The translations under genes were made by a program, and so were the position numbers. The notes under the pieces were generated by a model. The model searched no databases and was not told the origin of the DNA. It saw only the letters and a list, made by a program, of their open reading frames with translations. From the IMG/VR virus record IMGVR_UViG_3300033175_000345: a stretch of 20,000 nt of DNA; one strand, given 5' to 3'. The stretch is from an uncultured virus (IMG/VR IMGVR_UViG_3300033175_000345). Taxonomy: Duplodnaviria > Heunggongvirae > Uroviricota > Caudoviricetes. Of the stretch, positions 144-19,903 are shown one piece after another; the first letter of the stretch is position 1, and each line of letters begins with the position of its first letter.

Positions 144-365
144 ATGATGGAAGACCGATGGCTCTCCGTGGATGAGATTGCTGACCATCTCGGCATCAAG
201 CGGGATACGGTCTACAAGTGGATTAGCGAACGGCAGATGCCGGGCCACAAGATCGGTCGGCTCTGGAAGTTCGACAGAAAAGAAGTGGACGCATGGGTGA
301 AATCCGGCGCAGCCGGCGAAAAGGACAATGAAGACCCCAACCCGACAAAGGACAGGTCGAGATAA
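144..365 (+). CDS. Excisionase-family (HTH_17/MerR-like) DNA-binding protein
   Basis: 73 aa WLSVDEIADHLGIKRDTVYKWISERQMPGHKIGRLWKFDRKEVDAWV is a typical excisionase-type HTH; first gene of the operon; start may be 144 or 147. Confidence 0.9.
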   Translation: MMEDRWLSVDEIADHLGIKRDTVYKWISERQMPGHKIGRLWKFDRKEVDAWVKSGAAGEKDNEDPNPTKDRSR

Positions 366-367
366 AG

Positions 368-1522
368 ATGCCGGATACAGGGAACAAAGGTCATCGACAA
401 CGATTAAGGGGTCGCTTCGCGAGCGGCGAGGAAAGTTCCCGCTCAGAGGAAGCCCTACTGGAGCTTCTGCTGACCTATGCAATCCCGCAAAAGGATGTTC
501 AGCCCCTTGCCGCGCGCCTGCTTTTGGAACACGGCAGCCTTTCTTCCCTGCTGGAAGCTCCGATGGAAACGCTCTGCCAGTCCGATGGCATCAAGGAAAA
601 CAGCGCGGTCCTTCTTAAGCTGGTTGACTGGATTCGTCAGCATCATGGCCTCAAGCAGCCTGCTAAAGAGACGACCAAACCACTGAAGCAAGCCACGCTG
701 TTCGAGACTATTCCCTCGAAGTTCAATCAGGCGCCTTCGGCGGTCGCTGAACCGCGCCGGGAAAAGGTAATCCAGAGGTACGGCACGGAGATGTTCGGCA
801 AGGCCGTGCTCAAGGAGGCCATTCAAATCCTTCCCAGCCTTCCGGATAGCGAGTCGCTGGACGAAATACGCTCCTTCCTCCGCGCCAAGCTCCATTTCAG
901 CGCGGAACAGACCCGGCACCGATATGCCAATTACATCACACGCAGGATATTCCCGGAAGGCTATGCAGACGCCCCTTTGCGTTTATTCGCCAAGGCTTTC
1001 CCGGATGCACAGGAACTTCGGGATGTCTGCTTCTACCGTTTCCTTCTCTCGGAGCCGCTCGAGGTGGAGATGATCGAGGACCTTATCCTTCCCAATCTCG
1101 GCACCGGCCGATTGAGTCGTGAGCGCATACGAAAACGCCTTGCCGAAAAGTTTCCCGAGGCCAAAAGTATCGTTGATTGCGGTAAGGCCATCGTGGATGC
1201 CCTTACCGCGGGAGGGATTGCCAAGGCCGACCGGACTAAGATCAGCTTTGCCTATCGGGATATTCCGGTGACATCCTTCGCTTTTGTTCTTCACAGCGAG
1301 TTCCCGGAACCGGGCATGTACGACATCCGCAAGCTCGATGAGAATCGCATGATTCGGGCCATGCTCTGGAACCCGGAACGGCTCCTCCATGCCCTTTATG
1401 AGCTGCGCAACCAGGGGCTCATCAGCAAGATTTCGGAAATCGATAACATTCGCCAGTTCACGACCAAACACACGCTCGCCGGAGTGGTCGAGCAGATCGT
1501 CTCCGGAGGGAAAAAGCCATGA
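368..1522 (+). CDS. RadC N-terminal (UPF0758 HhH) domain fused to a BrxA-like DNA-binding domain
   Basis: N-terminus GHRQRLRGRF...LLELLLTYAIPQKDVQPLAARLLLEHGSLSSLLEA...DGIKENSAVLLKLV matches the RadC N-domain; no JAB HNHPSG motif. C-terminal ~240 aa (SAEQTRHRYANYITRR; LYELRNQGLI) resembles BrxA, which fits its position at the head of a BREX operon. Confidence 0.7.
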   Translation: MPDTGNKGHRQRLRGRFASGEESSRSEEALLELLLTYAIPQKDVQPLAARLLLEHGSLSSLLEAPMETLCQSDGIKENSAVLLKLVDWIRQHHGLKQPAKETTKPLKQATLFETIPSKFNQAPSAVAEPRREKVIQRYGTEMFGKAVLKEAIQILPSLPDSESLDEIRSFLRAKLHFSAEQTRHRYANYITRRIFPEGYADAPLRLFAKAFPDAQELRDVCFYRFLLSEPLEVEMIEDLILPNLGTGRLSRERIRKRLAEKFPEAKSIVDCGKAIVDALTAGGIAKADRTKISFAYRDIPVTSFAFVLHSEFPEPGMYDIRKLDENRMIRAMLWNPERLLHALYELRNQGLISKISEIDNIRQFTTKHTLAGVVEQIVSGGKKP

Positions 1523-2043
1523 AGTCCACCGAGATCATAGAAGCCATTCGTCAGAAGCTCACGGTTCCCGGTGGGCGGCACCTATATGGCGTTCTGGGCA
1601 CCTACACTCAACTCAACGGGTTCGCCAAGAAACTGACTCAGGCCAAGACCACCGACGGCGATCCTTTTCCCAAACCTGTCAACGTAAACCGTGGCATCCT
1701 GGATGCCATCCCGGATGACGAGTTCAAACAGCTTGCTGAAAACGAAGCCAAGCGTCCTGAACCCACGGCAGCGCATGTGGCCAGGGCCTTCGAGCGGTTC
1801 CTGCGCGCGAATCTCACCGGCAAGGGAATCCTCGTCTTGTCCAATCTGGAGATGCTCTTTGCCTATCACATCGAGCTGAATCTCTTACGAACCATGGCGG
1901 CGGACGAGGACCGGGTGCTGCTTTTCTTGCCCGGCCGGAGGTCGCGCGGTCGGATCATCATGTTTCATGAAATGGACGAGGGCGACTACACGCTGCCCAC
2001 GAACCTGATAGCTGAAAACCATCTGTGGGAGATTAGGGAATAG
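1519..2043 (+). CDS. BrxF/BrxB-like degenerate P-loop protein
   Basis: 174 aa; ILVLSNLEMLF...RVLLFLPG resembles BrxF/BrxB-family motifs; no intact Walker A; ATGA overlap with the upstream gene. Confidence 0.6.
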   Translation: MKSTEIIEAIRQKLTVPGGRHLYGVLGTYTQLNGFAKKLTQAKTTDGDPFPKPVNVNRGILDAIPDDEFKQLAENEAKRPEPTAAHVARAFERFLRANLTGKGILVLSNLEMLFAYHIELNLLRTMAADEDRVLLFLPGRRSRGRIIMFHEMDEGDYTLPTNLIAENHLWEIRE

Positions 2044-2045
2044 CC

Positions 2046-4520: not shown

Positions 4521-4525
4521 CGAGG

Positions 4526-5332
4526 ATGTCGAAGTACGATCCACTGACCGCATTCCTACGGAATCGACCCCAGGAGGAAGAGAAACTCGCGCTCTCCCTG
4601 GACGAAATTGAGCGTGTCTTGGGGACTGACCTTCCCAGAACGGCAAAAATCGACCGCCCGTGGTGGGCCAATACACGCTCGAGCCTGCACGCATTAAGAT
4701 GGCTCGATGCCGGCTGGAAGGTGGATAAGGTCGACTTTAAGGCTGGCTATGTAACTTTCATCAGGACTGGTGTGGAAGCTGTCGAATCCAATATCGGCCG
4801 GAATCGTTATGAGAACTTGCAGCGTTTCTTTAAAAGCGCCCCACCACAGCAGGAACAGATCGCATTGACGTTTAAGGAGTTGGCTGCGGTATTGGGTGGA
4901 AAACTACCTGTGACGGCCTCTCACGATAGACCGTGGTGGGCCAACACAAAATCCAGCCCGCAAGGCTCTTCTTGGATGGCCGCAGGGTGGAAGGTTGAAA
5001 GGGTTTATCTCAAGGCGCAGATCGTGACTTTCAGGCGCAAGGGAGTGAACCCTCTCACAAGCATACCGCGTTACGTTGAAGGCCTCCTTAATGGTTCAAC
5101 CCATTATGGCCGCCCAACGCCGAATACCCTCGCAAGCTGGTTACGGTTTTGTAAGCGCGTGGGGTGGTATTTCGAGGCTACGGTTCTGTATGAACGGGGT
5201 GGTCTTAACACAGATATGCTCAGTGAAAGTGAATGCGCAGAGGTTGATGAGGACTATGCCGTCTGCAAGCGCGAACTGAGTCGTTACAAGGACGACACAA
5301 ATGCGATGAAGAAGAGGAATTGCCATGGCTAA
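4526..5332 (+). CDS. Hypothetical protein: two tandem 'WWAN' (DUF7662-like) domains plus a C-terminal domain shared with the upstream methyltransferase
   Basis: Two ~80 aa repeats (LPRTAKIDRPWWANT..WLDAGWKV / LPVTASHDRPWWANT..WMAAGWKV). The C-terminal segment aligns without gaps to the methyltransferase C-terminus. Starts 5 nt after the methyltransferase stop and overlaps the next gene. Confidence 0.8.
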   Translation: MSKYDPLTAFLRNRPQEEEKLALSLDEIERVLGTDLPRTAKIDRPWWANTRSSLHALRWLDAGWKVDKVDFKAGYVTFIRTGVEAVESNIGRNRYENLQRFFKSAPPQQEQIALTFKELAAVLGGKLPVTASHDRPWWANTKSSPQGSSWMAAGWKVERVYLKAQIVTFRRKGVNPLTSIPRYVEGLLNGSTHYGRPTPNTLASWLRFCKRVGWYFEATVLYERGGLNTDMLSESECAEVDEDYAVCKRELSRYKDDTNAMKKRNCHG

Positions 5333-8300
5333 TACCGACGATCTTTTTACCGCCAGACAGAACCTGGCCGAGATTTGCACGGTCCCGGACAAGATCATTT
5401 CCGTCTATTCCCTGGAAAAACACGTCTGGGCCGACTCGAACTCCGAAGCCAGCCGCAAAGCCCGCAAGCCGGAGCTGCAGACCATTGAGGAGTTTCAGAT
5501 CGATCCGGTCAGACCATTCCTCACGGATATTCTGCGCAATATGGCAGCCCCCTGGAAGCGTGACCGAAAGGATAATCCGGTTGGTCAGGGCTATTGGATT
5601 CAGGCGGAGTTCGGCTCCGGTAAATCACACCTGCTCTGCTGTCTTTCCGCATTGGCACTTGGACGGAAAGATGCATGGGACATCGTCAAAAAGAAGGAGG
5701 ACGCCTCCGGCCGCGGCAAGCGCGAGTCTCTCTACCGTTTCTGGGAGGAGGGTATCGAGGCCAAGAGCGGCAAGGGGACCAAAGGCATCTTTGTCATCGT
5801 CAAGACGCTGGTAGGAGCAGGCAGCGGCACAGTGGGTTTGACCGATAAGGGCCGGCGTCTCTCCGAGTACATTCTGGATGCGGCCAAGGATCAGATACAG
5901 GTCGAGCTCGGCAAGAACATCTCCTTGTATCCGGTGGAGCTGTTGGCTGATCGCTTCATTACTGAGGACCTGGAGCGCTACCGGAAAGACCTATCCAAAT
6001 TCCTGCGCGACCCAAAATTCTTCGACGAGGATGAATTCGAAGAGGTTGACGACTTTATCCGGACCATCCAGCAGAACAAGACCCCGGAATACAAGCGGAG
6101 CTGCGGTAACAAGCTCTGGCGCTTTTATACCGAATACCTGAAAGTCCAGCCTCAGATCGCCGCAGAGACTGAGGACATCCTCACGCACATGACGGAAACG
6201 ATCTTGGCCGAGGGGTATAGCGGGGTCCTGTTGGTGTTGGACGAGGTGTCCTTGTTCATGAAGAACCGGGACGAGGATCAGCGGACCGACGACGAAAAGA
6301 CTCTGGTCGTATTGTCCAACCGGCTGGCGAAAATCCACAACCTGCCCGTGTGGACCGTCTGCGCGGCCCAGCAGGCTATCGAAAGCAAAATGGGGGTCAA
6401 GAACATCATTGCCGATGACCGGCTGAAGCTGGTGAAGCTGCTCGAAGAGGACAAGGACTATTATGATATCGTTCTGGCGCGCGTCAGAGAAATCAAAGTC
6501 CCGGCAGCTATCAGCAATTATTACCTCCATTACAAACGAGGATTCACCTGGCCGAACAGCATCGGCGAGACGGACTTCCGCCACTTCTTCCCATTCCACA
6601 AGCCTGCCATCGAGGTGCTACGGGCCATCACGTATGAACTGACCACGACCCGCTCCGCGATCCATTTCATGCATCAGACCCTGAAGCATCAGATCAAGAA
6701 TAAGGGGCGGGAGCTCATCCGCCTATGGGAACTGTTCGACGAGGCTGTTCGGTACGAGGAGGACCCGAGTGGCGTGCATGCCGGGCTGGTGGCCATCAAA
6801 ACGAAACGGGAGACGGACTATCGGGCTTACGAGGCCTGCAAGCGCCAGATCGATGGTCTGACCAAGGGATACTTGAAGGTTCACCGCGACAAGGGCGTCA
6901 AGGTCATCCAGACCCTTTTCCTTTACCACATCGCCCGCACGCGCCAGCAGGGTATCACGCCCGAAGAGATCGCCAACTCGGTGCTCATCGAGCGGGACAC
7001 CGATGCGAATCCGGATGAAAACAACCAGCACTATGAAACCATCGCCGACAACCTCAAAAAAGAACTGCGGCAGATCGTGCAGGCTTTCGATGAGGAGAAG
7101 CGACCAAGGTACCGCTTTGATCCCGTCTTTACCGGGGTCGATCCGAGGGATGAATTCCAGAAGGCCAGAGACGAAGCGGAATCCAATGAAGCCATGCAGA
7201 AGGAGGCCTGGGACCATCTTCTAGCGCTGGATGAATGGCCCGTGCGCACCCGCCAGATGACTATAGATCTGTCCAGCGGTGTGCGGTCCACGTTCCGGGA
7301 CATCGCGCCATTTATTGCGCCGTGGGAGGACAAGGGCGCAGTCCGCTCAGGGGACCAAAACCTGGATGTGGTTTGGCAGGGACGGCAGATCACGGGGCGA
7401 GTGGGCATGCGCGATCTCGGGCGAATGTTTGCGGACAATCAGCCCTTGCCGCCAATCGAAAGCGACCAGACGGATTTTGATTTCGCTGTCTATATTGGCG
7501 CACGGCACGTCGCAGACACCTCGATTCTCAAACTGATCGAGCGGCGCAAGGACCCTCGCGTTCTTCTCTGGACTCCAGCGGAACTGACCCAGGAAGAACG
7601 TGATCGGCTCATCGATTTCGCCGCCTACCGCAAACTCATTTCCGACTGGCAAGGCAAGGAAACCGAGGATGCGGTGGCGGTGGTCAACTGGGTTTCCAAT
7701 GCGCTTCAATCCGATCTCGCCAAGATCGTGAAGATTGTGGATAACAGCTACGCCCGGGGCCGCGTGGACGCAATGAATAACACCCAAATGGAGTTCCGCG
7801 TGGCCGGCGAACTGGCGGCTATCTTAACGCCGTTGGTAGATCGGGTGCTTACCGCCGCTTATGTGTCCAGGGACATCAAGTTCGATCCGCCCTTCGTATT
7901 CCGCAAGGAGGAAGGGGTCAAAGTGATCAATGGCATCGTCAAGACAGGCCGGATTCCCAAGGGGGCGAAGCCCAATCAGAACATAAGCGCCGCGCAGAAC
8001 TTCGGCTTCGGCTTGAACATCATGAAAAAGAGCGCAGAGAAGGAGCTGGATGTTTCGGGCAACACCTATGTGCATGAAATGTGGGCTTTCGTCGATGACA
8101 AGCTGACCGACGACGGGCAAACCATGAAAATGGACACCCTTTATAAGAACTTCATGGGCATCGGGGGGCCGAAGGACTATGGGCTCACCCGGCGCATGGT
8201 TCAGCTTTACATGCTCTGCCTCGTCCGGGAAGGCCGAGTGCGAGTCACCGTGGGGGCAAAGGCCGGGCTTGCCATCCCCATGCTCGATTACTCCAACATA

Positions 8301-9668
8301 GCGGAAGTAGAGTTTTCGACCAAAGTACTGGATGCATTGGGCGAGATTCAGAAAGTAGCCAAACCCGAGAATTGGGAAGTCTTAAGACCCTATGCGGAAA
8401 AACTGCTCGGCATCGAAATCCCGTCCACTCAGGACGACGCCATTATTTCCGAACACCGGACCAAGCTGCGGCAACTGTTCGCCCAGGAAAGGGAGTCCTT
8501 CTCACGGGTAGCGAGCCGGGCTCAGAGCCTGTTTGACGCACTCAAGTCAACCAACCCGTATGAAGCGGAACTGACGCAGGTCGCGAAACTCTTTGCCGCA
8601 AACATCGAGGGCGGCGACGACATCCACCTCCTTTTGTACGCCCTCAAAGAGGCCATGGGGTATCAGGCCTTTGATACGAATATGGCGGCACCTGCCGAAG
8701 TGGATGATCTTGCCAATCGACTGAAAAACTACAAAGACATTCGGGCGTTTCTTGATTACGAGACCGAGCTCAGGACCGCTCATGCCTACTGCGCCATTAC
8801 CCTTGGGGATCAAAAAGAACTAAATGAGGCTCGAAAGTCTATCGAAACCGTCCGAACCAAGCTTGGCAACCTGAAGGACTATATTGATTCCGACGTCAAG
8901 CTGAAGACTGAACTCGTGGGACATTTCCCGCCGGTCGAGGGGGAAAAGGACACGATTGCCTCGATGATCCGAGATTACTCATCCGTATACCTGCCGATGC
9001 ACGAATCCGCGGTGAACAAAATTGATGGGAGCCGCAAGAAGATTCTGGATATCATGATGGGAGCCGATATCAAGGCCCTTGAAGTTCTTGACGGTATCAC
9101 GGCACTCCAACCCGCAAGCACGGACAAACTGATCGCCCGCCTGACTCAGCTTCGCGCAGAGGTGTTCGAGTGTCCTTCGCCTTCGCGGGCTTCCGTCGAG
9201 GATCACCTGCGCAGCGGCCCGCTACATGAATGCGGCTTGTCGTTTGTGAATGCGTCAACCCATGTGCAAACGGCAGACGGAGCCGCCAGAAAAGCCAGCC
9301 AGTTGCTCGACGAGGCGTTTCGGCGAAAGATGGATGTGTTCATGAATCCTGCGGTGCGGGAACGTCTGGAGCAGGGCAAGTCTGAGCCTGCCATCTCAGG
9401 GCTCTTGGCATGTAAGACCACCGATGAACTGCGCGCATATTTTATAAAGGCGGTCCAGGAAACGCCTGATCTTGTGGACATCATTAATAAGTACCTCAAG
9501 CGCATCGTCGTGAAGCGGGTCAGAATGGCCGATTTCAGGCCCAAAACAGGCACCATCCAAAAAGATCAGGTTGGGAATGTGGCGGAGGAATTCGGCCGCT
9601 TCCTGGAATCACAGTTCACCGGTAACGAGGGAGACGACGACTCCCTTCCAATGCTTCAGTTGGAATAG
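5325..9668 (+). CDS. brxC: BrxC/PglY-like large P-loop ATPase
   Basis: 1447 aa; Walker A variant YWIQAEFGSGKSHL, Walker B VLLVLDEVS, FPFH motif, coiled-coil-like C-terminus; directly upstream of pglZ. Confidence 0.85.
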   Translation: MANTDDLFTARQNLAEICTVPDKIISVYSLEKHVWADSNSEASRKARKPELQTIEEFQIDPVRPFLTDILRNMAAPWKRDRKDNPVGQGYWIQAEFGSGKSHLLCCLSALALGRKDAWDIVKKKEDASGRGKRESLYRFWEEGIEAKSGKGTKGIFVIVKTLVGAGSGTVGLTDKGRRLSEYILDAAKDQIQVELGKNISLYPVELLADRFITEDLERYRKDLSKFLRDPKFFDEDEFEEVDDFIRTIQQNKTPEYKRSCGNKLWRFYTEYLKVQPQIAAETEDILTHMTETILAEGYSGVLLVLDEVSLFMKNRDEDQRTDDEKTLVVLSNRLAKIHNLPVWTVCAAQQAIESKMGVKNIIADDRLKLVKLLEEDKDYYDIVLARVREIKVPAAISNYYLHYKRGFTWPNSIGETDFRHFFPFHKPAIEVLRAITYELTTTRSAIHFMHQTLKHQIKNKGRELIRLWELFDEAVRYEEDPSGVHAGLVAIKTKRETDYRAYEACKRQIDGLTKGYLKVHRDKGVKVIQTLFLYHIARTRQQGITPEEIANSVLIERDTDANPDENNQHYETIADNLKKELRQIVQAFDEEKRPRYRFDPVFTGVDPRDEFQKARDEAESNEAMQKEAWDHLLALDEWPVRTRQMTIDLSSGVRSTFRDIAPFIAPWEDKGAVRSGDQNLDVVWQGRQITGRVGMRDLGRMFADNQPLPPIESDQTDFDFAVYIGARHVADTSILKLIERRKDPRVLLWTPAELTQEERDRLIDFAAYRKLISDWQGKETEDAVAVVNWVSNALQSDLAKIVKIVDNSYARGRVDAMNNTQMEFRVAGELAAILTPLVDRVLTAAYVSRDIKFDPPFVFRKEEGVKVINGIVKTGRIPKGAKPNQNISAAQNFGFGLNIMKKSAEKELDVSGNTYVHEMWAFVDDKLTDDGQTMKMDTLYKNFMGIGGPKDYGLTRRMVQLYMLCLVREGRVRVTVGAKAGLAIPMLDYSNIAEVEFSTKVLDALGEIQKVAKPENWEVLRPYAEKLLGIEIPSTQDDAIISEHRTKLRQLFAQERESFSRVASRAQSLFDALKSTNPYEAELTQVAKLFAANIEGGDDIHLLLYALKEAMGYQAFDTNMAAPAEVDDLANRLKNYKDIRAFLDYETELRTAHAYCAITLGDQKELNEARKSIETVRTKLGNLKDYIDSDVKLKTELVGHFPPVEGEKDTIASMIRDYSSVYLPMHESAVNKIDGSRKKILDIMMGADIKALEVLDGITALQPASTDKLIARLTQLRAEVFECPSPSRASVEDHLRSGPLHECGLSFVNASTHVQTADGAARKASQLLDEAFRRKMDVFMNPAVRERLEQGKSEPAISGLLACKTTDELRAYFIKAVQETPDLVDIINKYLKRIVVKRVRMADFRPKTGTIQKDQVGNVAEEFGRFLESQFTGNEGDDDSLPMLQLE

Positions 9669-9680
9669 GAGGCTGCGTCG

Positions 9681-12590
9681 ATGCTTTCAAGCTGGGTCAT
9701 CGAAAAATTGGAGGCATTGAAGGATGAGCAAATTCTGCTTGTCCAGGATTCGCTTCGTCTTCTTCCTGAAGCCGACGGTGCTGTCCACCGGTTCGCAAAC
9801 GAGAGCGGCTTCACGGTAATTATCGCCTCCACAAATCTCGTTTTCAGGGAGCTCTTTGAAAAGGCAACCGTTTCAAAAGAGACAAAGAAGCTGCTCCTTA
9901 TAGATCGTGCTCCGGCCCGAAGGAGGGCCCATGCGTCCCTGACAAAAGCGCCTCCCCCCTTCTATCCGGATCTTCTTGCCAGAACAGCGGATACAGCGCG
10001 GATCGACATTAGCCTTCGGCAGTTTCTGATCGAAAAGACCGGGGACCCCAACTGGCCTCAAGAGGCGAATGATCCGCGGTTTGCGAGACTTATCACGGGC
10101 TCTATCGACGCTGTGCTGAAGGCACATGCGAGCCTGCGGGTTGCTCATCCAACCAGGTTCACGGATCACGATTTCAAGACCATTGTTGCCTATTCGGCAT
10201 TGGGCGTTCCCGAAGCGGCTTTCAAGCGGCCTGAGGCAAGAATCTACTGGCGTATCGCACTTATCGGGTATCCGGCTCTCGAAGAGCTCGATTCACTTGC
10301 CCCGGAAGTGGCGCGTTCCATCCGTGACGAACTGCGTAGCGCCCCGGCTCCATTCTGCTGGTTTGCAGACTCGCCGCCGGAGCTGATTGTCAGGGCTTTC
10401 TATCTCTCGACGATATTGTCCCAGCACATTGAGCACTGGAAGCTCCTGCTGACAAGCGTTGATCCGGACCTCAAGGCCTTCAGCGAGATGGATACATCGT
10501 TAATTGGCGAGGCCGCACCCGAACTTGTGTCGATTGATCCCCATAGGGCTGACCGTGACCTTCTGGAAGTCGAGGCGTCGCTTTCCAAGGACATGCTCAA
10601 CCTTATCCTTCTCGACCAACTGAAACTTATCACGAACGGACGCTTTGCAGAGGTTATCGAGAGCGAGCATTATTCCGTCCTTATTCGTTCCTTGGCCCTT
10701 TTAGTTGGTCTGGACAGTCTACTTTCCGACACCCCGCCCCTCGCTGACCACGAGAAACTATGTCAGGTGCTGTTTGCGGAAGCAGATGGCAAAAAAGACC
10801 TGTTTATCGAACAGAGACCATCGCAAGCCTGGGAGAACCTAAAGGCGGGATATCGTCTGGTGCGATCAATACGCGACATCCGGGATGCCTTGGATGTCGC
10901 CGTCAAGAATCTGAGCGTGAAACCAGTCTCTGAGTTGACTTTCAAGTGGTTCCGAGCCTTATGGAATGATCGTCGTGTCAACCGCTTGGAGTTCTATCTG
11001 TCTGCTCTGGAGCGACTGGTGTTTAGTATGGATTTTCTCCCGCGTGCGGCGAACGACCTGCCACCAGCGTTCCTGGCAGCACAGGAACGGATTAGAGAAC
11101 GCGTAGGCTTGCTGAGGGACGAGATTCAAAAGACGCTTTCAGTTTTGAATGTCCGATACCAGGAACTGGTGGTCGCACAATACAAATCATGGGTTGCTTC
11201 GGATTCACCGGAAGTAAGGTTGACCAGCCAGTTTTTGCGGCGCTGCGTAAAGCCCAATTGGGACCCACAAAGCGAGAAGGCAGTGGTGTTTGTGTTCGAC
11301 GGCATGCGTTACGACATATGGGACGAGTTGGTCAGGCCCATTTTTGAGGATCGCATGGAGATCATCGCGGATTACCCGGCCACGTCCCTCTTACCTTCAG
11401 AAACTCATATCAGCAGAAAGGCCATTTTTGCGGGGACCTTTCCCGAGTCTTTCGACACTAAACGCGGCGAGGACGCTCTGCTTAAGGAGGCTATGCAACG
11501 AGAATTCGGGTATGCCGGAGATGTTGAAGTCGTGGCCCCCGATGGCATGGGAACAGGCGAGACCGTTCGATATCGCGCAGGCAATATCGATTTTTTCATA
11601 TTCGAACTTTGTGACAAGGAGCTCCATAAGATTCCCGTGAAAACGCTCCCCGATGGACGGTGCGTTCCTGGCCGCCCGCTGGCGTTCATCTATCAGCAGC
11701 ATATCAAGGACATCATCGACACCGAGGTTATGGCCATTATTCGTGGCCTAGCACCCGATACCAAGGTGTTTGTAGTTGCCGACCATGGATTTGGAGCTAT
11801 CGGTCGCGAGCGCATTCGGATTGACCTTCATTGGCTGAATGAACCGTTTGATTGTTTTTATCTGAACGCATGGCTCAGGCAGACACTCGGCAGCGTGGGC
11901 GCGCCTCGAAAGGTGCGCGATAACGTCTTGGAGTTTCCGGTCGGTGATCTGCGGATGCCTGATTCGGGAGAGGCGTATGACCGAGCCACGAAACAGAGTT
12001 GGCAGAAAAAGTTTGAATCGATCATTTTTCCCAAAACGGGCTATGCCTTGGCTCGGCCAAAGGCCAACTTCAATCCTGATGCATATTCGCACGGCGGGAT
12101 TTCGATCCAGGAAATGCTTGTGCCGATGCTTGCTATGCGAGTGAAAACGCCGGAGGAAGGCTTGCTGGTCCTTGGTTCAATTGCCGGGCCTGCGGAACTC
12201 ATTGAAGGGGAAGAAGCCGAGTTTAAGATGCCGGTTGAACTTACCGAATCTCATAAACATAGGGAGCTTCGAATAGAGGTACAAGCCGTCTATCAGAACA
12301 AGGAATCAACACCAGCCCTGTCTTCATTAGTTCAATATGTTGCTGCCGCGGGAGGAGAAGTCGTCTTCCGGTTTGTACCTGATGCGACCGACGCTTCGGA
12401 CGAAGAACGCAAAACAGGCATTATGGAGAGGACGCTGAGGATCAGCGTTACCTATCGTGAGGCGCAGCGAATGGTGAGAAAGGCGCGATCCATTCGCTTC
12501 TCTATGCGCCTGAATTCTGAAAAGATCGTCCGCCGCGTACCAGCGCATCTTGGCAAAATACTAGGCTTGACGCCAAGGAGCATGAAGTGA
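9681..12590 (+). CDS. pglZ: PglZ alkaline-phosphatase-superfamily protein
   Basis: [34 protein letters not shown] and [14 protein letters not shown] are PglZ-domain motifs; RBS AGGAGG upstream. Confidence 0.93.
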
Positions 12591-12684
12591 TGCCGGATTT
12601 CAAAACGTCACCCAAATCGACATGCCCGGCATGCTACCGAAAATCGCTCCTGGCGCTTCTTATGTCGTGGGTGGAGGACTGCGG

Positions 12685-14727
12685 ATGAACCTAAAGCTCA
12701 AAGAGGTCTTCAGAGGCAAGGTCGTCAACAAGGCTCATACGATTAACACGGGTGTTGACGAGTTTCCTCGCTATGTTCTGGAGTACCTTATCGACAACTA
12801 CTGCTCCGAGGATACCTTCCATGAGGACATGGAAAAGGTCGTCAGAAGGTTGAAAGAGACTTTTGTCTACGGGGCGGAGGCTGAGAAGATCAGGCATTAC
12901 ATCCGGGAAAACCGCAGCCATTCCGTGATCGCAAGTCTGGAGGCTCGACTGGTAGAAACGGAGGATAAGTATTGGGGGACGATTTCCGCCATCAACGAGA
13001 ATTTTGTAAACATACCGGAGAGCATCGTCCGTCAATATCCCATGCTTCTCTCGGGCGGGATGTGGGGCACTATCGACCTGACTTATGACGAGACAGAAAT
13101 ACACAATAAAAAAATCAGGCCCTTCAAAATCACAGCATTTACGCCCTTTCAGGTGAGCGTTATCAATCTGGATGAGTTCATAGAACGTCGAAGGGAGTTT
13201 TCCACTGACGAGTGGATCGATGTTTTGGTGAATTCCTGTGGCCTGGACCCGGAGGGGATGACCCGGCGACAGAAGTTGCTCTACCTATGCCGCTGCATTC
13301 CCCTCGTGGAAACCAACGTCAACATGGTGGAACTCGCACCTCGGGAAACCGGCAAGACGTATCTTTATCGTAATATCTCATATTACGCCCATGTGCTATC
13401 TGGCGGCAAAGCAACTCCAGCCCAGCTTTTCATTAATCTGAATAACGGAAGGATTGGCGAGGTCGGTGTTCGGGATGCCGTTGTGTTCGATGAGATCGCA
13501 AATACCGATTTCACGGACCCCAGGTCTTTCGTAAGTATTATGCAGGGGTACATGCAAGACGCCAAATTCAGCAGAGGGAAGAAAGAAATTCTTGCCTTCG
13601 CCAGTTTGGTGTTCGTGGGCAACCTGGACGTCCAGGGAGACCTGCCCCACGAGAAATACTATCACCTCTTTGAGCCGCTACCCGATTTCCTGCAGGTGAT
13701 TGCGTTTTTGGACCGAATCCATGGCTACCTGCCTGGTTGGGAAATCCCGAAATTGGCACCCAACAGTTACTCGAAAGATTATGGGTTCATCACGGATTAT
13801 TTTTGCGAAATCATGCACGAGCTCCGGCGCGTTGACCTGCTGGGCGCGGTTCGCTCGCGCTTTGAAGTAGTGGATCACGCTCGAAGGGCGCACGGTGTCT
13901 CGGGCCGAGACCAACGGGCTGTGATGAAGACCACATCGGGATTACTGAAGCTGCTTCATCCTGACGGTCAAGTTTCCGACGAGGGACTTCAAGATATCCT
14001 CAGTTTGTCATGCGAACTGCGTCAACGGGTACGAGACCAGCTCCATCTGATTGCGCCTGGCGAGTATGACCGTATTTCTTTAGGAGCCCTGATGCGGCCG
14101 TCGGGTAAGCAAGTTGTGCCTGAGCTTCCTGATAGTAATCGTGTTCAGCGAGTTGCACTTCCTGAGAAGCCTTCCGTGGGTGAGGTCATAGGCTTGGCTG
14201 TCGAAGGGGACCACGGTTGCATCTTGCATTTTGAGATGCAGGCGACCAAGGGGTCCGGACGCATTGTGCCGCTCGGATCGATCCAGAGGGTTATGAGGGA
14301 AAGCATCGAGGCGGCAGCTCAATACATCCGTGCGAAGCATGAGGACCTCGGGATAACTGCCGAATGGCGAAAGAGTTTTGATGTTGCGGTCTTGGCGACC
14401 TTCATGGGCGTGCCCAAGGAAGGGTCGTCCGCCGGCATCACAATCGTTGCCGGGATTGTGTCGGCCTTGAAAAAGGTCCCCGTGCGAAATGACCTCGCCA
14501 TGACCGGGGAGATTACGATCATGGGGAAGGTTCTCCCGGTGGGTGGCATTCAACAGAAGGTCAGGGCTGCCTACGATGCCGGAGTCAAGGAGGTTCTTTT
14601 GCCTGCTGATAATTTGAAGGAGGCGGAGGGATTACCCGCCTACGTGCTCGACGGTATCAAGCTGACGCCGGTAAGTAGTATTGACGAGGTGATCGAGATG
14701 TCCTTAGTGAACACCAATGCGAAATGA
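12685..14727 (+). CDS. brxL: BrxL: AAA+ ATPase with Lon-type protease C-terminal domain
   Basis: [20 protein letters not shown] (Walker A), VVFDEI (Walker B), [29 protein letters not shown], Lon-like PKEGSSAG...[20 protein letters not shown]. Start placed at ATG 12685 after GGAGGA rather than 12622. Confidence 0.93.
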
Positions 14728-14768
14728 ATAAGGGTAGCTATGGAGACACAGTTTGACTGGAGCACAGA

Positions 14769-15716
14769 ATGACTGCTGAGAATCACAATAAACCAGTGCC
14801 TCACATGAAAGACCTGAACTATCCAGGGCTTTTTCAAGGTGCTGATACCGCTGCTGCATCGGCCCAAAAGACCTTTTTCTTGTTACAGCGGATATATCTT
14901 GGCTCCCTTATCGTGGGCGGATTGACTGGCATGCTCACATCATTATTCACAGGCAGTGCACTCATATGGACATATACTGCGATGGCCATAGTTTTGGCCA
15001 TGGGACTTCTAACGTTATGGATTGGTCGCTCTCGTCAAGATGACAATGCTTGGTTCGATTGCCGTGCGATTGCCGAGTCCGTTAAGACGGCAACATGGCG
15101 ATATATGATGATTGCCCCTCCTTTCCAAGGCCTAGACTCAATTGATCAGCATTTCATTTCAGAACTGCAGGAAATCAGGAACGCAAGGCCGGAGTGCCAA
15201 AAGTATTTGGCAGGGATATCTGTCGTCAGCAACCCTGCTATTACTGATTTAATGCGTGAAGTTAGAGGGGATACGTTTGAAAATCGCAAATTGTTCTATA
15301 TCGAGCAAAGGCTATGTGACCAAAAGGTCTGGTACTCTCGCAATGCCGAGATGAACGCACGTAGAGGTAATCGATGGTTTTGGGGAACAGCGTGCCTACA
15401 ATGTGTTGCCGTTGTCGTGGCCATCGTCCAAGCATCAACAGGAGGGTTGGGATTCAATATGGTCCCGGTGCTTACAACCTGTGCTGCAGTTGTGGCTGCT
15501 TGGAGCCAGATGAAGCGTCACGATGAATTGAAGAAGACATATGCTCTTGCGGCACAGGAACTCAGTGAGTTGGAGGCCATAGCTAGTAATTTGGTCATCG
15601 AGAGCGAATTCCCTCAGCTCGTTGAGCAGGTAGAGGAGGCCATCTCGCGAGAACATACCATGTGGTGTGCTCGTAGGGATGTTCCGCTTCGCAGAGCTGG
15701 CTCTGGAGCGCGGTAG
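14769..15716 (+). CDS. SLATT-family (DUF4231-like) tandem 2TM+2TM membrane effector
   Basis: Two pairs of hydrophobic helices; motifs WFDCRAIAESVKTATWRYMM, YIEQRLCDQKVWY, YALAAQEL and VEQVEEAISREHTMW typical of double-SLATT effectors. Confidence 0.85.
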   Translation: MTAENHNKPVPHMKDLNYPGLFQGADTAAASAQKTFFLLQRIYLGSLIVGGLTGMLTSLFTGSALIWTYTAMAIVLAMGLLTLWIGRSRQDDNAWFDCRAIAESVKTATWRYMMIAPPFQGLDSIDQHFISELQEIRNARPECQKYLAGISVVSNPAITDLMREVRGDTFENRKLFYIEQRLCDQKVWYSRNAEMNARRGNRWFWGTACLQCVAVVVAIVQASTGGLGFNMVPVLTTCAAVVAAWSQMKRHDELKKTYALAAQELSELEAIASNLVIESEFPQLVEQVEEAISREHTMWCARRDVPLRRAGSGAR

Positions 15717-15727
15717 AGGAAAGCGAG

Positions 15728-16699
15728 ATGACAGTTCAAAGAAAACATACACTTGGCTTGGCGGGAACTACAGTACAGTTGCCCTGCTTTTTCCCATCCG
15801 TATCGAGTGTTAAAACGAATTTGCTGCCAGTTGATTACGTTGAGCTTTTGGCTGCTTCTGCCTATCCCCTGTTCCTTGTTTCTGCATATGACATCGCAAG
15901 TTCCGCGCCAGAACATCAGGAGCGTATTGATCGTGCCACCAAACAAAGCCGATCTGAGGGATCAGTCGTTTTGCTGGACAGTGGCAATTATGAGAGCTTT
16001 TGGAAAGGTGCCCCTGATTGGCGGGCGGAGACATTCCATAAAATTTCAAGCACGTATGAGTACGATATAGGCTTTTGTTTTGATAATCAGGTTCCCCCCA
16101 CCACCGCGAAGGCAATTTCTGAAGATGTTGTTAGGGGTGTTCTTCGAGACCAGGAACGCTCATCAAGCACGATAGTGCCAATCGTACATGGCCCCACCGA
16201 CTTATTGCCCGAGGCCGCGCAGATGGTTGCAGGGCAGCTTTACCCGGTACTTTTGGCAGTTCCCGAGCGTGCCTTGGGGGATGGCATCTTGGCACGAGCG
16301 CGTTCTGTCCGAAAGATCCGACAAGCGCTTGATCAATTAGGTTTTTATTGTCCGTTACATCTACTGGGCACAGGGAACCCAATTTCGATAATTGCATACT
16401 CAATCGCTGGAGCAGATAGTTTCGATGGCCTGGAGTGGTGCCAAACAGTGGTTGATCACGAGACGGCATTCCTATTTCACTTTCAACACTGGGATTTCGT
16501 CCGGGGGCAAACTGATTGGGGTTCACATGGCACACTGCCGTATATTCAATCTGCACTGATGCATAATCTTGATTTTTATGCCTCTTTCATGCGGAAGCTT
16601 CAGGAATCAATAGGATGTTGTAATCCTCATGGGATTATGAAGGCTTTCCTTCCTGGGACACGTGGCGAAATTATCCTCAATTCCCTTGAGGGGGTGTGA
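15728..16699 (+). CDS. tRNA-guanine transglycosylase (TGT)-like protein, Cap10-like
   Basis: LPCFFPSVS, LLDSGNYES (cf. DSGGF), FCFD, IVPIVHG, LHLLGTGNP, GADSFD and HNL indicate a TGT barrel; lacks the CxCxxC zinc site of bacterial Tgt. Confidence 0.8.
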   Translation: MTVQRKHTLGLAGTTVQLPCFFPSVSSVKTNLLPVDYVELLAASAYPLFLVSAYDIASSAPEHQERIDRATKQSRSEGSVVLLDSGNYESFWKGAPDWRAETFHKISSTYEYDIGFCFDNQVPPTTAKAISEDVVRGVLRDQERSSSTIVPIVHGPTDLLPEAAQMVAGQLYPVLLAVPERALGDGILARARSVRKIRQALDQLGFYCPLHLLGTGNPISIIAYSIAGADSFDGLEWCQTVVDHETAFLFHFQHWDFVRGQTDWGSHGTLPYIQSALMHNLDFYASFMRKLQESIGCCNPHGIMKAFLPGTRGEIILNSLEGV

Positions 16700-17439
16700 A
16701 TAGCAATATGGTGGCTCAAGTGGTTAATCTTTCTCGACTGGAGAGGGCAATCCAAGAAGTATGTATGTGCCTTAAGGACAAAAGCGAGCAGAGGCTTGAA
16801 TGGACGACCCTTAGCGAGGATCAGTTATGGCGTGAGCTTGTAGCTTGCATTTTGGGAAGCCGGGTCCGATATGGTGTTGCCTACTCAGCTATTGAGCGTA
16901 TGGAAAAGGCCAACTTGTTATCGCCGAGTCATGCCATCACAAGGCGGCATGAATACGAACAGCATGTCTTAAACATATTGATGGAACAGGGAGGTTCGGA
17001 AAATGCCCACGATGTAAAAAGCCGCTATCCCTTTCCTTGGTTACGAGCTGGTCAAGTTAGCGCGGCCGCTGAAACACTCTATTCCTGTGGTGGAACAATA
17101 AAAAGCCGCCTTGAAATGGCAAAGGACGAACGTGAGGCGCGCCGTCAATTGGCTAAGAGTGTTTCAGGACTTGGCCCCAAACAAGCGAGCCTCTTTCTGC
17201 GCAATATCGGATACACGGCCCAGGTTGCTGTTCTCGATGTACACGTTCTTACTTACATGGCATGGGTGGGATTGACTGCAGCACCTGTTAAGACCGTTCG
17301 AACAATACGGCAATATGAGGTGCTTGAAGACACATTTATTAAGCATTCATGTTCTTCTGGTTTCCCCCCAGATCGCTTTGATCTAGCGGTCTGGGTGGTT
17401 GTGCGAGTGATCAAGAGGGATTACGCGTCATGTCAATAG
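16696..17439 (+). CDS. 8-oxoguanine DNA glycosylase/lyase (OGG, HhH superfamily)-like protein, Cap11-like
   Basis: ELVACILGS and VSGLGPKQASLFLRNIG...VAVLDVHVL match the archaeal-type Ogg HhH motif with Lys and Asp retained; GTG start overlaps the TGT stop (GTGA). Confidence 0.85.
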   Translation: MNSNMVAQVVNLSRLERAIQEVCMCLKDKSEQRLEWTTLSEDQLWRELVACILGSRVRYGVAYSAIERMEKANLLSPSHAITRRHEYEQHVLNILMEQGGSENAHDVKSRYPFPWLRAGQVSAAAETLYSCGGTIKSRLEMAKDEREARRQLAKSVSGLGPKQASLFLRNIGYTAQVAVLDVHVLTYMAWVGLTAAPVKTVRTIRQYEVLEDTFIKHSCSSGFPPDRFDLAVWVVVRVIKRDYASCQ

Positions 17440-18026
17440 TGACCCTTGTTTCTGGCGGAATTGACTCTACCCTAATGAGTTTGATGGCTCACGAGGAAGG
17501 CATTGTCATAAACCCTCTGTTTGTAGATTACGGTCAACTCAGTTCAAATAGGGAATGGAATGCCTGCGAGCAATTGCATGAAAGATATGGATTGCCATTG
17601 GTTAAGCGAATGGATGTCTCCGGTTTCGGCAGGATTGTACCAAGCGGTATTACCGATCCCACCATGCGTATAAACGAAGACGCGTTCCTGCCAGGACGGA
17701 ACCTTCTTTTATTGCTTTGCGGCGCTGCCTACGCTTACAGTGTACAAGCGGATGGCGTGGCAATAGGTTTGCTCAATCCTGAAGATTGTCTATTCCCGGA
17801 TCAGACGCTTGATTTTCTTCGCAAAACCGAAGACATGATCGAGACAGCCATGAAAAAGCGAATTACAGTGCTCGCGCCTTTAATAGAGTTCACGAAGGCA
17901 GATATTCTGTCACTGGCGACAGCGCGTGGGTTACAAGATACGTACTCCTGCCACGCCGGGGGGAATGAGCCCTGCGGGAAATGCGTGGCATGTATTGAGA
18001 TTGCAAATGCAAAGGAAAGGAGCTGA
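17430..18026 (+). CDS. queC: QueC-family (7-cyano-7-deazaguanine synthase-like) PP-loop ATPase, Cap9/QatC-like
   Basis: PP-loop LVSGGIDST, DYGQ, LPGRN, KADI and zinc site TYSC-x7-CGKCVAC. Confidence 0.92.
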   Translation: MSIVTLVSGGIDSTLMSLMAHEEGIVINPLFVDYGQLSSNREWNACEQLHERYGLPLVKRMDVSGFGRIVPSGITDPTMRINEDAFLPGRNLLLLLCGAAYAYSVQADGVAIGLLNPEDCLFPDQTLDFLRKTEDMIETAMKKRITVLAPLIEFTKADILSLATARGLQDTYSCHAGGNEPCGKCVACIEIANAKERS

Positions 18027-18029
18027 AAG

Positions 18030-18536
18030 ATGGGTGGAGGTGGCGGAGGCGGCCGCGGACTGACTCCCAGCGAGCTTCAACAGTTGGAGCAAAAGGCCAA
18101 AGAATCTCTGAAGACAAGTGGCGACGCGAGTAAATGCAACGTGTTCATTAGCTTTGCGGCCGAAGACTTGACAGACGTCAATATGCTTCGAGCGCAGGCA
18201 AAAAATGAAAATTCGGATATTGAATTCAACGACTGGTCATTGAAAAAGCCCTTCGACAGCAAGGATGCTGAATATGTAAAGCGAGGCATACGTGAGCGTA
18301 TTCGGCAATGCTCGGTCACTGTCGTATACATATCCGAGAAGACTGCAGACAGCAAATGGGTTAATTGGGAAATCCGTGAGACAATTGCTTTGGGCAAAGG
18401 CGTGGTGGCTATGTATAAAGGCGATAGACCTCCTTCTCGTTTGCCTAAGGCTATTTCCGAGAACAAGGTGCCTGTAGTACCTTGGAACCAAAAGGCATTG
18501 GCTGTAGCGATAAAGACTCAGGCGCAGAAAAAATAG
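18030..18536 (+). CDS. TIR-domain protein (MTH538/DUF1863, ThsB-like) with N-terminal poly-glycine
   Basis: NVFISF, IRERIRQCSVTVVYIS and SKWVNWEI (catalytic Glu retained); N-terminus MGGGGGGGRG; 3 nt after the queC stop. Confidence 0.9.
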   Translation: MGGGGGGGRGLTPSELQQLEQKAKESLKTSGDASKCNVFISFAAEDLTDVNMLRAQAKNENSDIEFNDWSLKKPFDSKDAEYVKRGIRERIRQCSVTVVYISEKTADSKWVNWEIRETIALGKGVVAMYKGDRPPSRLPKAISENKVPVVPWNQKALAVAIKTQAQKK

Positions 18537-18576
18537 TTAGCCGCGCTTTGAAGTAAAAAGGCGAACGTCCAAAGAT

Positions 18577-18915
18577 ATGATCCAGGATTTGGAACAGATT
18601 GAGTATCGCCGGGGTATGCTCGAAAAGGGCATGAAACCTGACGATCTTCCAGTAAAAATATGGCGTGGAGCCAGAATTCCTGTGGTTATACGCACCGCGA
18701 TCAATACTGAGGGCTTGCTTAATCTCGGTGGCGTTTACGGGGACAAGAAGGCCGGCGATCCGGTGGAATACGACAACCTCAAGCTGGCCCTGACCGACGA
18801 CACTGTCGAGATCACGGTTTTCAACCGCGGGATCGCTCTCTTTATGTCTGACGACGAACGAATCCGTCGAATACACCGGGTGCTGTGCAAACTCGATGGA
18901 ACGGGGAAAGATTGA
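18577..18915 (+). CDS. Hypothetical protein
   Basis: 112 aa ORF; TGATG stop/start coupling to the next gene; no family recognised. Confidence 0.65.
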   Translation: MIQDLEQIEYRRGMLEKGMKPDDLPVKIWRGARIPVVIRTAINTEGLLNLGGVYGDKKAGDPVEYDNLKLALTDDTVEITVFNRGIALFMSDDERIRRIHRVLCKLDGTGKD

Positions 18916-19562
18916 TGGCCGGCTCAAGGGCAAGCGCGGAGAAGGTAACATGGTCAGGCCGTGTCATGGCTATTCAGCCTCGCATACGGCTCATACGTTC
19001 CTTTGATGAGCGGTCCCACAACTACTTTGGGTATGTGCTTTGCATCGACGGAACTCGCGGCGGGGAGGCCGGCGAGTTCCTGATTGCGGTCGGTGAAGCT
19101 GCACACGAAAAACACCGGTTTCAGACAGGCATGGAACTGAGCGGTTACTCCGTGCCGGCCGAAGACCCGCGCAAGGAGACGGCGGCGATCTACAAGACGA
19201 GCGGGCTCAAGGTCGTCAGGAATGCCGAGGGTGAAACTCCTGCCGGGCCGCCCTTCCTTGGAGTGCCTCCGAACCTGGCAACCTACCGCAGCCGTGGGCA
19301 TCGCCGTCTGGACGCCCGGACTTACGATACCAAATGCACGACTTGTAATTGGGGCTGCCGGATGCCGGTGGAGATGACCATCGACCAGTGGAATCCGTCA
19401 AAGAAACAGTACCGGTTCGAAACCTTCTGTTACGGCCCGAAAAGCTGCACTTTTTATCGGCCCGGACCCGCGCGGAAAGTTCCGGGACGCAAGGGCATGT
19501 CCTACACCGAGGAAGATTGGGTCGACGAGGACGCCACTGCCCATCGGGGCCCGGATGATTGA
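18915..19562 (+). CDS. Hypothetical Cys-cluster protein
   Basis: 215 aa from ATG 18915, which overlaps the upstream stop; CTTCNWGC and CYGPKSC motifs; GC-rich codon usage. Confidence 0.7.
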   Translation: MAGSRASAEKVTWSGRVMAIQPRIRLIRSFDERSHNYFGYVLCIDGTRGGEAGEFLIAVGEAAHEKHRFQTGMELSGYSVPAEDPRKETAAIYKTSGLKVVRNAEGETPAGPPFLGVPPNLATYRSRGHRRLDARTYDTKCTTCNWGCRMPVEMTIDQWNPSKKQYRFETFCYGPKSCTFYRPGPARKVPGRKGMSYTEEDWVDEDATAHRGPDD

Positions 19563-19602
19563 GGATGAGAACGCCCGATGGTCAAAAAAACGGCAAAGCG
19601 GA

Positions 19603-19645
19603 AATTGGGTAACGCCGAATGAAATGGATAACGAATTGGGTAACG
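19603..19645 (+). repeat. Three 12-bp direct repeats AATTGGGTAACG (one degenerate)
   Basis: AATTGGGTAACG at 19603-19614 and 19634-19645; AAATGGATAACG at 19622-19633. Confidence 0.8.
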
Positions 19646-19672
19646 AGTCGGCCTGCGGAAAGAGGTTGATCT

Positions 19673-19726
19673 TTGCGACAGGTTTGCGACACAACTTGCG
19701 ACAGACTCAAAACTCGACTTGCGACA
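19673..19726 (+). repeat. Four 8-bp direct repeats TTGCGACA
   Basis: Exact copies start at 19673, 19684, 19696 and 19719 (spacing 11, 12 and 23 bp). Confidence 0.85.
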
Positions 19727-19812
19727 TCACCCTTTGGTAGGGTAAATGAGGAAGTGGAATTGCCAGGGCTTCCGGCCTACCGGAGGCCACATGCTCTTTG
19801 ATAGGTTATAGA

Positions 19813-19903
19813 TTCACAACGGTTTTCGGTTAACAGCCGGAGAAGGAGAACCGTTATGAAAAGGGTTGCACATGGGGAGCCAACAACGAATGCAACCCTC
19901 TTC
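19813..19903. repeat. Two adjacent, slightly overlapping inverted repeats
   Basis: TTCACAACGGTTTTC/GAGAACCGTTATGAA (19813-19860) and GAAAAGGGTTGCA/TGCAACCCTCTTC (19858-19903). Confidence 0.65.

Follow-up and report, generated by a model that had tools for sequence, protein, structure and literature searches.

Gene content of the locus

The DNA considered here is a stretch of 20,000 nucleotides (nt) from an uncultured virus (IMG/VR record IMGVR_UViG_3300033175_000345), which is called the window throughout. Downstream of a bacteriophage exclusion (BREX) island, whose genes include PglZ and BrxL (Pfam), five tightly packed genes lie on the + strand. Pfam and PADLOC assign them, in order, to a SLATT effector, a Cap10-like protein of the tRNA-guanine transglycosylase (TGT) family, a Cap11-like OGG-family protein, a Cap9-like enzyme of the QueC family and a ThsB-type TIR protein (Table 1). 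The open reading frame (ORF) of the TIR begins with atg ggt gga ggt ggc gga ggc ggc cgc gga ctg from position 18030, that is Met, seven Gly and Arg-Gly-Leu, and its protein starts MGGGGGGGRGLTPSELQQLEQKAKESLK. By analogy with the type IV cyclic-oligonucleotide-based antiphage signaling system (CBASS), it is likely that the N-terminus of this TIR is deazaguanylated, the covalent step being deduced from that analogy.

The genes of the operon follow one another closely. The TGT-like and OGG-like genes overlap by 4 nt and, as a first-pass annotation of this DNA had pointed out, the TIR ATG comes 3 nt after the end of the QueC-like ORF (stop codon TGA at 18024-18026). When the region 14500-19900 was scanned for promoters and terminators, the sites obtained were no commoner than in shuffled sequences, and none lay on the + strand between the genes. 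The SLATT protein exceeds both NCBIfam cut-offs, SLATT_3 and SLATT_1, and the OGG-like protein scores 85.6 bits against the NCBIfam N-glycosylase/DNA lyase model, under its cut-off of 183. No CD-NTase family member was detected by Pfam or PADLOC in any ORF from 14769 to 19562. Since the enzyme adjoining the QueC-like gene is a TIR and a CD-NTase was not found, the operon is not a CBASS.

Table 1. Positions of the features discussed, in the window unless a related locus (L) is named; values are E-values, aa stands for amino acids and pLDDT for the predicted local distance difference test.
Feature	Position	Strand	Basis
Double SLATT membrane protein (SLATT_3 + SLATT_1), predicted cell-killing effector	14769..15716	+	Pfam SLATT_3 2.9e-32, SLATT_1 2.7e-33
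Cap10-like TGT-family protein	15728..16699	+	Pfam TGT 4.4e-7 (weak); PADLOC TGT PDLC00913 1.2e-22
Cap11-like OGG-family glycosylase, GTG start	16696..17439	+	Pfam Ogg-HhH 6.2e-23
Cap9-like QueC-family PP-loop enzyme, predicted ligase, 198 aa	17430..18026	+	Pfam QueC 7.8e-37 (127.3 bits); PADLOC QueC PDLC00911 1.7e-29
Ribosome-binding site AGGAG, 7 nt 5' of the TIR ATG, within the end of the QueC-like gene	18018..18022	+	Sequence
ThsB-type TIR, 168 aa, predicted signal maker and acceptor	18030..18536	+	Pfam ThsB_TIR 1.1e-23; PADLOC ThsB1 3.2e-19
Seven Gly codons, residues 2-8, predicted flexible tail, first Gly the predicted acceptor amine	18033..18053	+	Sequence; pLDDT <50 for residues 1-8
Predicted helix, residues 13-29, PSELQQLEQKAKESLKT, candidate docking helix like CdnD helix alpha1	18066..18116	+	AlphaFold2 model
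PglZ, in the BREX island within window 1-14727	9681-12590		
BrxL, in the BREX island within window 1-14727	12622-14727		
Second, tail-less ThsB-type TIR of related operons	L002:4176-4646, L003:2198-2596, L008:4208-4681, L009:841-1449, L017:1724-2122		

Conservation of the glycine start

The seven Gly residues of the tail are encoded by three codons, GGT, GGA and GGC. A protein search with the TIR gave 1473 clusters at E-values up to 0.001, and the best 120 of these, 73-99% identical, were analyzed. Almost all of them are 166-171 aa long. Their starts read MG in 117/120, MGG in 114/120 and M[GS]G[GS]GG in 108/120, and the run consists of exactly seven Gly in 89 relatives and of six in 15 (104 in total). 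As for the three relatives that do not start with MG, one begins with MV, one with MM-GG, and one has a longer called start with an internal M-G7.

In addition, a scan of genomes, taking one genome per species, gave 23 related loci from very different phyla; one was cut inside the TIR, leaving 22 usable. A start codon stands directly before the Gly run in 21 of these 22 loci (ATG, or GTG in L018), the exception, L014, being a decayed copy. GGAG-type sites are placed 5' of the TIR start in related loci much as AGGAG is in the window. In a comparison of 18 related loci, the Gly codons vary at their third base and Gly is retained, a synonymous variation which indicates selection on the protein and not a slippery DNA repeat. 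As judged from these sequences, the Gly tail is under selection, far beyond what chance would give. Residues 9-35 of the TIR are conserved too (alignment A1). In L017, the Gly-tailed TIR is in two pieces and looks like a decaying copy.

The first-pass annotation had taken the mixed codons of the M-G7 start as a sign that it did not arise by slippage, had placed the true start at the Gly tract rather than downstream of it, and had expected QueC-linked homologues to keep an N-terminal Gly; the variation among loci, the position of the ribosome-binding site and the 21/22 count bear it out on all three points. Codon 19 is indeed an in-frame TTG, so that the tract could be pictured as untranslated, or as a chance low-complexity start, with the true start downstream, e.g. 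at the TTG of Leu19. Such a start would leave without a role the AGGAG 7 nt ahead of the ATG, the ATG and Gly run of 21/22 loci, the MG of 117/120 relatives with its synonymous codon changes, and the conserved residues 9-35, and we regard it as extremely improbable.

In type IV CBASS, Cap9 makes the modification termed NDG on Gly2 of CdnD, and Cap10 binds it (Wassarman et al., 10.1101/2025.04.06.647259). The part of that report consulted gives M(G/S)G(G/S)GG as the acceptor motif of type IV CBASS CD-NTases, with G2 as the modified residue. The tail of the window TIR fits this motif (MGGGGG... at 18030), as do the 108 relatives counted above, which upholds the earlier proposal of the Gly start as a candidate acceptor.

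Specificity of the tail among TIR proteins

In five related operons a second ThsB-type TIR lies between the SLATT and TGT-like genes (Table 1); the window operon has none. In its two cleanest calls this second TIR has 132 aa, and it has no Gly tail, the protein opening straight with the first strand (strand A). An exhaustive TIR search gave 638 matches at E-values up to 0.001, from which 150 representatives were listed, 114 of them covering the first strand. Among these 114 of the 150 listed representatives, an MG start was found in 0/34 of those with an N-terminal extension of fewer than 15 residues and in 40/80 of those with an extension of at least 15. In several of the other 40 extended representatives the start was called too far upstream, and M-GGGG follows internally. 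Two calls look like read-through or fused products: P0121 runs from the QueC C-terminus into a Gly-tailed TIR, and P0174 has a TGT-like N-terminus and then a TIR.

Fold and predicted catalytic site of the TIR

The AlphaFold2 model of the TIR has a pLDDT of 80, with residues 1-8 below 50 as a disordered tip. A helix is modeled at residues 13-29, where the 10-residue blocks have a pLDDT of 71 and 54, and the TIR fold starts from residue 36. The helix that had been predicted to follow the Gly tract is therefore recovered in the model, at modest confidence. In alignment A1, L19 is nearly invariant and a L..LE..AK pattern is kept across the helix. By analogy with helix alpha1 in the Cap9-CdnD complex, the helix is a candidate for a docking role.

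The closest Foldseek matches of the model are bacterial ThsB proteins, the best ones being 8fz9 (4.2e-9), EcThsB, ThsB 6lhy and SARM1. W113 and E114 are nearly invariant in alignment A1, and the counterpart of E114 in ThsB 6lhy is the Glu of WVRYE, which we take to be the catalytic Glu. Two hallmarks of a Thoeris system are thus found together: a ThsB-type TIR with an active-site Glu, as seen from the ThsB_TIR match, the ThsB structures retrieved by Foldseek and E114, and an adjacent effector of the kind that answers a TIR signal, here the SLATT protein.

Conservation of the QueC-like and TGT-like active sites

In tblastn searches of the related loci, the QueC-like gene was found directly 5' of the TIR in 22/22, the OGG-like gene in 22/22 and the TGT-like gene in 21/22, the remaining locus (L019) being cut. 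In 11 related loci the SLATT gene precedes the TGT-like gene.

The QueC-like protein matches both Cap9 (9nto_B, 2.3e-13) and canonical QueC (2pg3, 1.2e-14). The residues described as key in Cap9 are the SxGxDS loop, L83, R86, Y115 and D117 (10.1101/2025.04.06.647259, part consulted). In the QueC-like protein, SGGIDS at residues 8-13 aligns to Cap9 18-23 (SxGxDS; S18, D22, S23), and L83, R86, Y115 and D117 correspond to L87, R90, F122 (Tyr to Phe) and D124; Cap9 M29 is also kept. Over 22 sequences, the Cap9-type positions are invariant or nearly so: S8, G9, G10, D12, S13, R90 and D124 do not vary, nor do C174, C182, C185 and C188, and F122 is found in at least 90%. Against the NCBIfam equivalog TIGR00364 the protein scores 115 bits, for a cut-off of 150.3, and against NF008317 it scores 66.8, for a cut-off of 378. 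By sequence score, it therefore falls below the curated mark for canonical QueC (7-cyano-7-deazaguanine synthase).

The best solved relative of the TGT-like profile A3 (18 sequences) is Cap10 (9ntn_A, 5.2e-16), with archaeosine TGT at 1.2e-6. For Cap10 the key residues reported are D73, S74, D122, K154 and the pair D248/H226 (10.1101/2025.04.06.647259, part consulted). D84, S85, D119, H211 and D233 of the TGT-like protein are invariant in the 18 sequences and align to Cap10 D73, S74, D122, H226 and D248, so that the catalytic pair is present as D233 and H211. Most of the residues named for Cap9 and Cap10 are thus kept in the neighbours of the TIR, in line with the premise of the first-pass annotation that the QueC-like protein is a ligase of the Cap9 kind. 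Two of the related loci are apparently decaying, with a TGT-like gene in two pieces (L014 and L018) and, in L014, an OGG-like gene in two pieces as well.

Co-folding of the QueC-like protein with the TIR

The QueC-like protein and the TIR were co-folded with our own alignments (22 and 30 rows, respectively), and the calibration counts are therefore only rough: the mark chosen is reached by 116/157 solved complexes and by 2/215 mismatched pairs. The median interaction score (ipSAE, interaction prediction score from aligned errors) was 0.50 (runs at 0.50, 0.57 and 0.46), against 0.18 for the best control. The runs share at least 76% of their contacts, and the partner's pLDDT is at least 71. The co-folding that had been suggested as a check of the Gly tail in the QueC active site thus lends weak support to the pairing; the score speaks to the pairing and not to the position of the tail.

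Proposed mechanism

On the gene content and order, the tight packing, the conservation of the tail and of the active sites, and the TIR fold, we build the following scheme, in which we infer the chemistry throughout, as well as which way control runs and what the signal is. According to an established rule, Met1 is cleaved when residue 2 is small, e.g. Gly. Because Gly2 is small, Met1 of the TIR would be removed. The QueC-like enzyme would activate 7-carboxy-7-deazaguanine with ATP and join it by an amide bond to the Gly2 amine, as Cap9 does on CdnD. The seven-Gly tail and the helix would let the modified end enter the pocket of the QueC-like protein and then that of the TGT-like protein. The latter would hold or prime the TIR, and may hand the base-linked protein to a further target; the OGG-like protein may reverse the TGT-like step. 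On infection, the TIR would make an ADP-ribose-derived signal from NAD+ through Glu114, and this signal would open the SLATT effector, so that infection is aborted.

We thus read the locus as a Thoeris-type anti-phage operon, in which a TIR signal maker and a SLATT effector are combined with a type IV CBASS ancillary module. To this whole explanation, tagging included, we give a probability of roughly 0.7, and QueC-catalyzed tagging, at the same rough probability, is the best-supported mechanism. The proposal of the first-pass annotation that the TIR is a further substrate class for nucleobase-protein conjugation is favored by most of the sequence-level comparisons, and the adduct itself would follow from them by analogy.

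Comparison with known systems

The operon resembles type IV CBASS in that QueC-, TGT- and OGG-like genes adjoin the gene of a signal maker with a Gly-rich extension followed by a helix. It differs from it by its acceptor, which is a TIR here and a CD-NTase, CdnD, there; with a TIR in this role, one expects a signal derived from NAD+ and not a cyclic oligonucleotide. Furthermore, the Gly run of the window TIR is longer and purer (seven Gly), and Cap10 K154 and Cap9 L104 are not kept.

The idea of a TIR linked to cap9, cap10 and cap11 is already present in a preprint of December 2025 (Yirmiya et al., bioRxiv 10.64898/2025.12.03.692087), and the window TIR is a further case. In the parts of that preprint consulted, some Thoeris operons are described as carrying cap9, cap10 and cap11 (6G, S10B), and AlphaFold3 models of a Pseudomonadales ThsB reach an interface predicted template modeling score (ipTM) of 0.79 with Cap10 and 0.62 with Cap9, 'suggesting a similar mechanism'. 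SLATT effectors are there the ThsH of type VII Thoeris, for which the signal is cyclic ADP-ribose, and Cap2/Cap3 are described on Thoeris (10.64898/2025.12.03.692087). The window operon shares with these systems a ThsB-type TIR, an effector and homologues of cap9, cap10 and cap11, the mechanism being drawn in both cases by analogy with CBASS, and its SLATT effector corresponds to their ThsH. In contrast, the Gly-rich TIR N-terminus is not mentioned in the passages of the preprint consulted, and 'N-termin' occurs twice in the paper, on other matters. Their example comes from Pseudomonadales, whereas the window copy follows a BREX island.

In QatABCD, QatC, which belongs to the QueC family, is proposed to load deazaguanine on the N-terminal Gly of QatB (PMC13279940, PMC13329287, parts consulted). 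The likeness consists of a QueC-family enzyme and the N-terminal Gly of its partner. However, the window has no QatA ATPase or QatD nuclease genes and does have TGT-like and OGG-like genes, and QatC, for which residues 332-362 are cited, is much larger than the QueC-like protein. With canonical QueC, the latter shares the PP-loop fold, SGGxDS, the Zn-binding cysteines and the same substrate-binding residues, but it stays at 115 bits for the equivalog cut-off of 150.3 and sits in a defense operon.

To date, the type IV CBASS cyclases are the one substrate class in which protein deazaguanylation has been demonstrated; for QatB it is a proposal. A review of the field, in the part consulted, covers only CBASS, and in the literature on deazaguanylation, QueC-linked Thoeris and Cap9/ThsB we found no bench test of a TIR acceptor. 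If the TIR is an acceptor, the QueC/TGT/OGG module would be a portable switch for unrelated immune signal makers, which parallels Cap2/Cap3 on Thoeris. Since the idea is already in print (10.64898/2025.12.03.692087), the value of the present case lies in its testability rather than in surprise. The family is well suited to such a test, with 1473 clusters, a nearly constant length, an unusually pure seven-Gly tail and relatives on plasmids of cultured Rhizobium. Moreover, the tryptic N-terminal peptide of the TIR would be short and easily followed by mass spectrometry.

A sister clade with a predicted TGT-fold protein in place of the module

Metagenome contigs were scanned with an alignment of distant Gly-tailed TIRs; 373 loci were confirmed, of which the best 80 were retained. 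Hidden Markov models (HMMs) of the QueC-, TGT- and OGG-like proteins matched only 15 of these 80. An intact TIR start and 700 nt or more of upstream DNA were available in 54 loci. The TIR is immediately preceded by a QueC-like gene, itself behind TGT-OGG, in 12 of them, by a gene of roughly 230-330 aa without a Pfam match in 40, and by neither in 2. An 8xMP membrane protein mostly lies 3' of the TIR in both groups. Gly follows the start codon in 45/47 cases of the group with the no-Pfam gene and in 10/14 of the QueC group, in which 12/14 have [GS]G or G[GS] after the start.

The sister cassette thus has three genes, for the protein of roughly 230-330 aa, for a TIR with a Met-Gly-Gly-Gly start and for 8xMP (PF24838), and occurs in loci L036-L095, e.g. 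L048:4830-6746 and L052:5287-6918. Over distances of up to 6 kb around it, the HMM search of these loci detected neither a QueC-like nor an OGG-like gene. When the alignment of the upstream gene (A5) was compared with the Cap10-like profile A3, the profile-profile probability was 1%, and a sequence search of A5 against solved structures gave nothing meaningful (xylose isomerase, E-value 0.85). The AlphaFold2 model of the upstream gene product (pLDDT 80.6), however, has only tRNA-guanine transglycosylases among its top 50 Foldseek matches, the best at 2.4e-9. According to this model, a single, highly divergent TGT-fold protein alone occupies the TGT-OGG-QueC place in the sister clade. A divergently transcribed CARF-like/winged-helix gene (HFX_2341_N + DUF6293_C) is often found 5' of the cassette.

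The first-pass annotation had expected a Gly-rich start only in QueC-linked TIR homologues. This is so in the window clade, where linkage is 22/22, and it fails in the sister clade, in which the TIR stands beside a TGT-fold gene only. Given the 22/22 linkage, the sister clade does not weaken the tagging reading for the window clade; it may be a QueC-independent variant. One may also ask whether the Gly tail is primarily a handle for TGT-fold proteins, QueC tagging being only one of its uses, a view that we consider tentative and somewhat unlikely. If it is true, the control module of the window operon would likewise be centered on the TGT-like protein rather than on the QueC-like ligase. Should the sister clade work without any QueC, it would represent a second, undescribed control of a TIR through its glycine end.

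Weighing of alternative explanations

Several observations weigh against tagging of the TIR by the QueC-like protein. L104 of the Cap9 binding cleft aligns to a Gly in the QueC-like protein, and the base-reading K154 of Cap10 aligns to Val150 of the TGT-like protein, where an invariant H154 stands four residues further on. The pass in co-folding is weak, scores of 0.60 or less being found in only 18 of the 157 solved complexes and in both mismatched pairs that pass; since a like complex, Cap9-CdnD, is already solved, the pass may also partly reflect likeness to it. Finally, the Gly start of the sister clade, where no QueC is linked, means that a Gly tail alone is no proof of QueC-dependent tagging. 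QueC and TGT families act on tRNA and DNA bases, and the three genes could likewise place 7-deazaguanine on nucleic acid, in the manner of DNA-modification systems, the TIR being merely an island-mate whose tail has another role; the equally good matches of the QueC-like protein to canonical QueC 2pg3 and to Cap9 would suit this view. It is made very unlikely by the wide lead of Cap10 over archaeosine TGT among the solved relatives of the TGT-like protein, by the score of the QueC-like protein under the equivalog cut-off, by the tail, which has the acceptor motif of the CD-NTases, and by the fact that the four genes, the Gly-tailed TIR included, travel together across phyla while the effectors vary.

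A closer competitor is a non-covalent role, in which the Gly tail and helix would form a docking arm for the TGT-like and QueC-like proteins, the product of the QueC-like enzyme being free or attached elsewhere. The sister clade, with its Gly start beside a TGT-fold protein and no QueC-like gene in 40/40 loci that have the TGT-fold gene directly 5' of the TIR and at least 700 nt upstream, speaks for such an arm, as does the weak co-fold support for the QueC-like protein and the TIR. An arm of this kind would not, however, explain why G2 and the acceptor motif are retained exactly as published, nor why the QueC-like gene is always directly 5' of the TIR, with coupled or near-coupled starts. Furthermore, in CBASS the cyclase needs the adduct made by Cap9 in order to bind Cap10 (10.1101/2025.04.06.647259, part consulted). 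A purely non-covalent arm is thus unlikely, and covalent tagging of the TIR by the QueC-like protein is preferred.

Genomic setting and spread

Identity between the window and the nearest genome compared (G001) is 97% over 4658-14711, to the end of brxL, and the match resumes only at 19701-19886. In place of the SLATT-to-TIR operon (window 14712-19700), G001 carries an AAA ATPase, an S8 peptidase, DuOB and two DUF488 genes. This different cargo after brxL suggests that the cassette is swappable cargo at a defense-island site. A second BREX copy, 83% identical, is also present in G001. No defense-type QueC was found in this genome. Its canonical QueC scores 245.9 bits against Pfam QueC, versus 127.3 for the window QueC-like protein, and it has QueD too, so that the precursor pathway exists in a relative.

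Directly 3' of the TIR, two overlapping + strand ORFs, 18577-18915 (112 aa) and 18885-19562 (225 aa, Cys-rich near its end), had no match in Pfam, PADLOC or NCBIfam. Counterparts (75% and 73% identity) exist only in L001, the closest related locus, and for this reason the two ORFs were left out of the system.

Around the TGT-OGG-QueC-TIR core, the effectors comprise double SLATT, single SLATT/DUF4231, TPR-S with a trypsin-like peptidase, MAP3K_TRAF_bd/TPR-S, patatin and extra TIRs. In L013, L019-L023 and L016, the core is accompanied by TPR-S with a trypsin-like peptidase, MAP3K_TRAF_bd/TPR-S, patatin and larger TIR proteins. The phage collection gave only distant TIR matches, at 33-36% identity, in Staphylococcus and Streptococcus phages.

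Plasmids of Rhizobium and Agrobacterium encode a fusion in which a TIR domain at the N-terminus precedes the Cap10-like TGT domain (467 aa). In one of these loci, on the Rhizobium sophoriradicis plasmid NZ_CP104156.1 (L116, 2267-5429), the TIR-TGT fusion comes first, with the OGG-like, QueC-like and Gly-tailed TIR genes after it. A PfkB-like kinase gene stands before this gene set and an Mrr_cat-like gene behind it.

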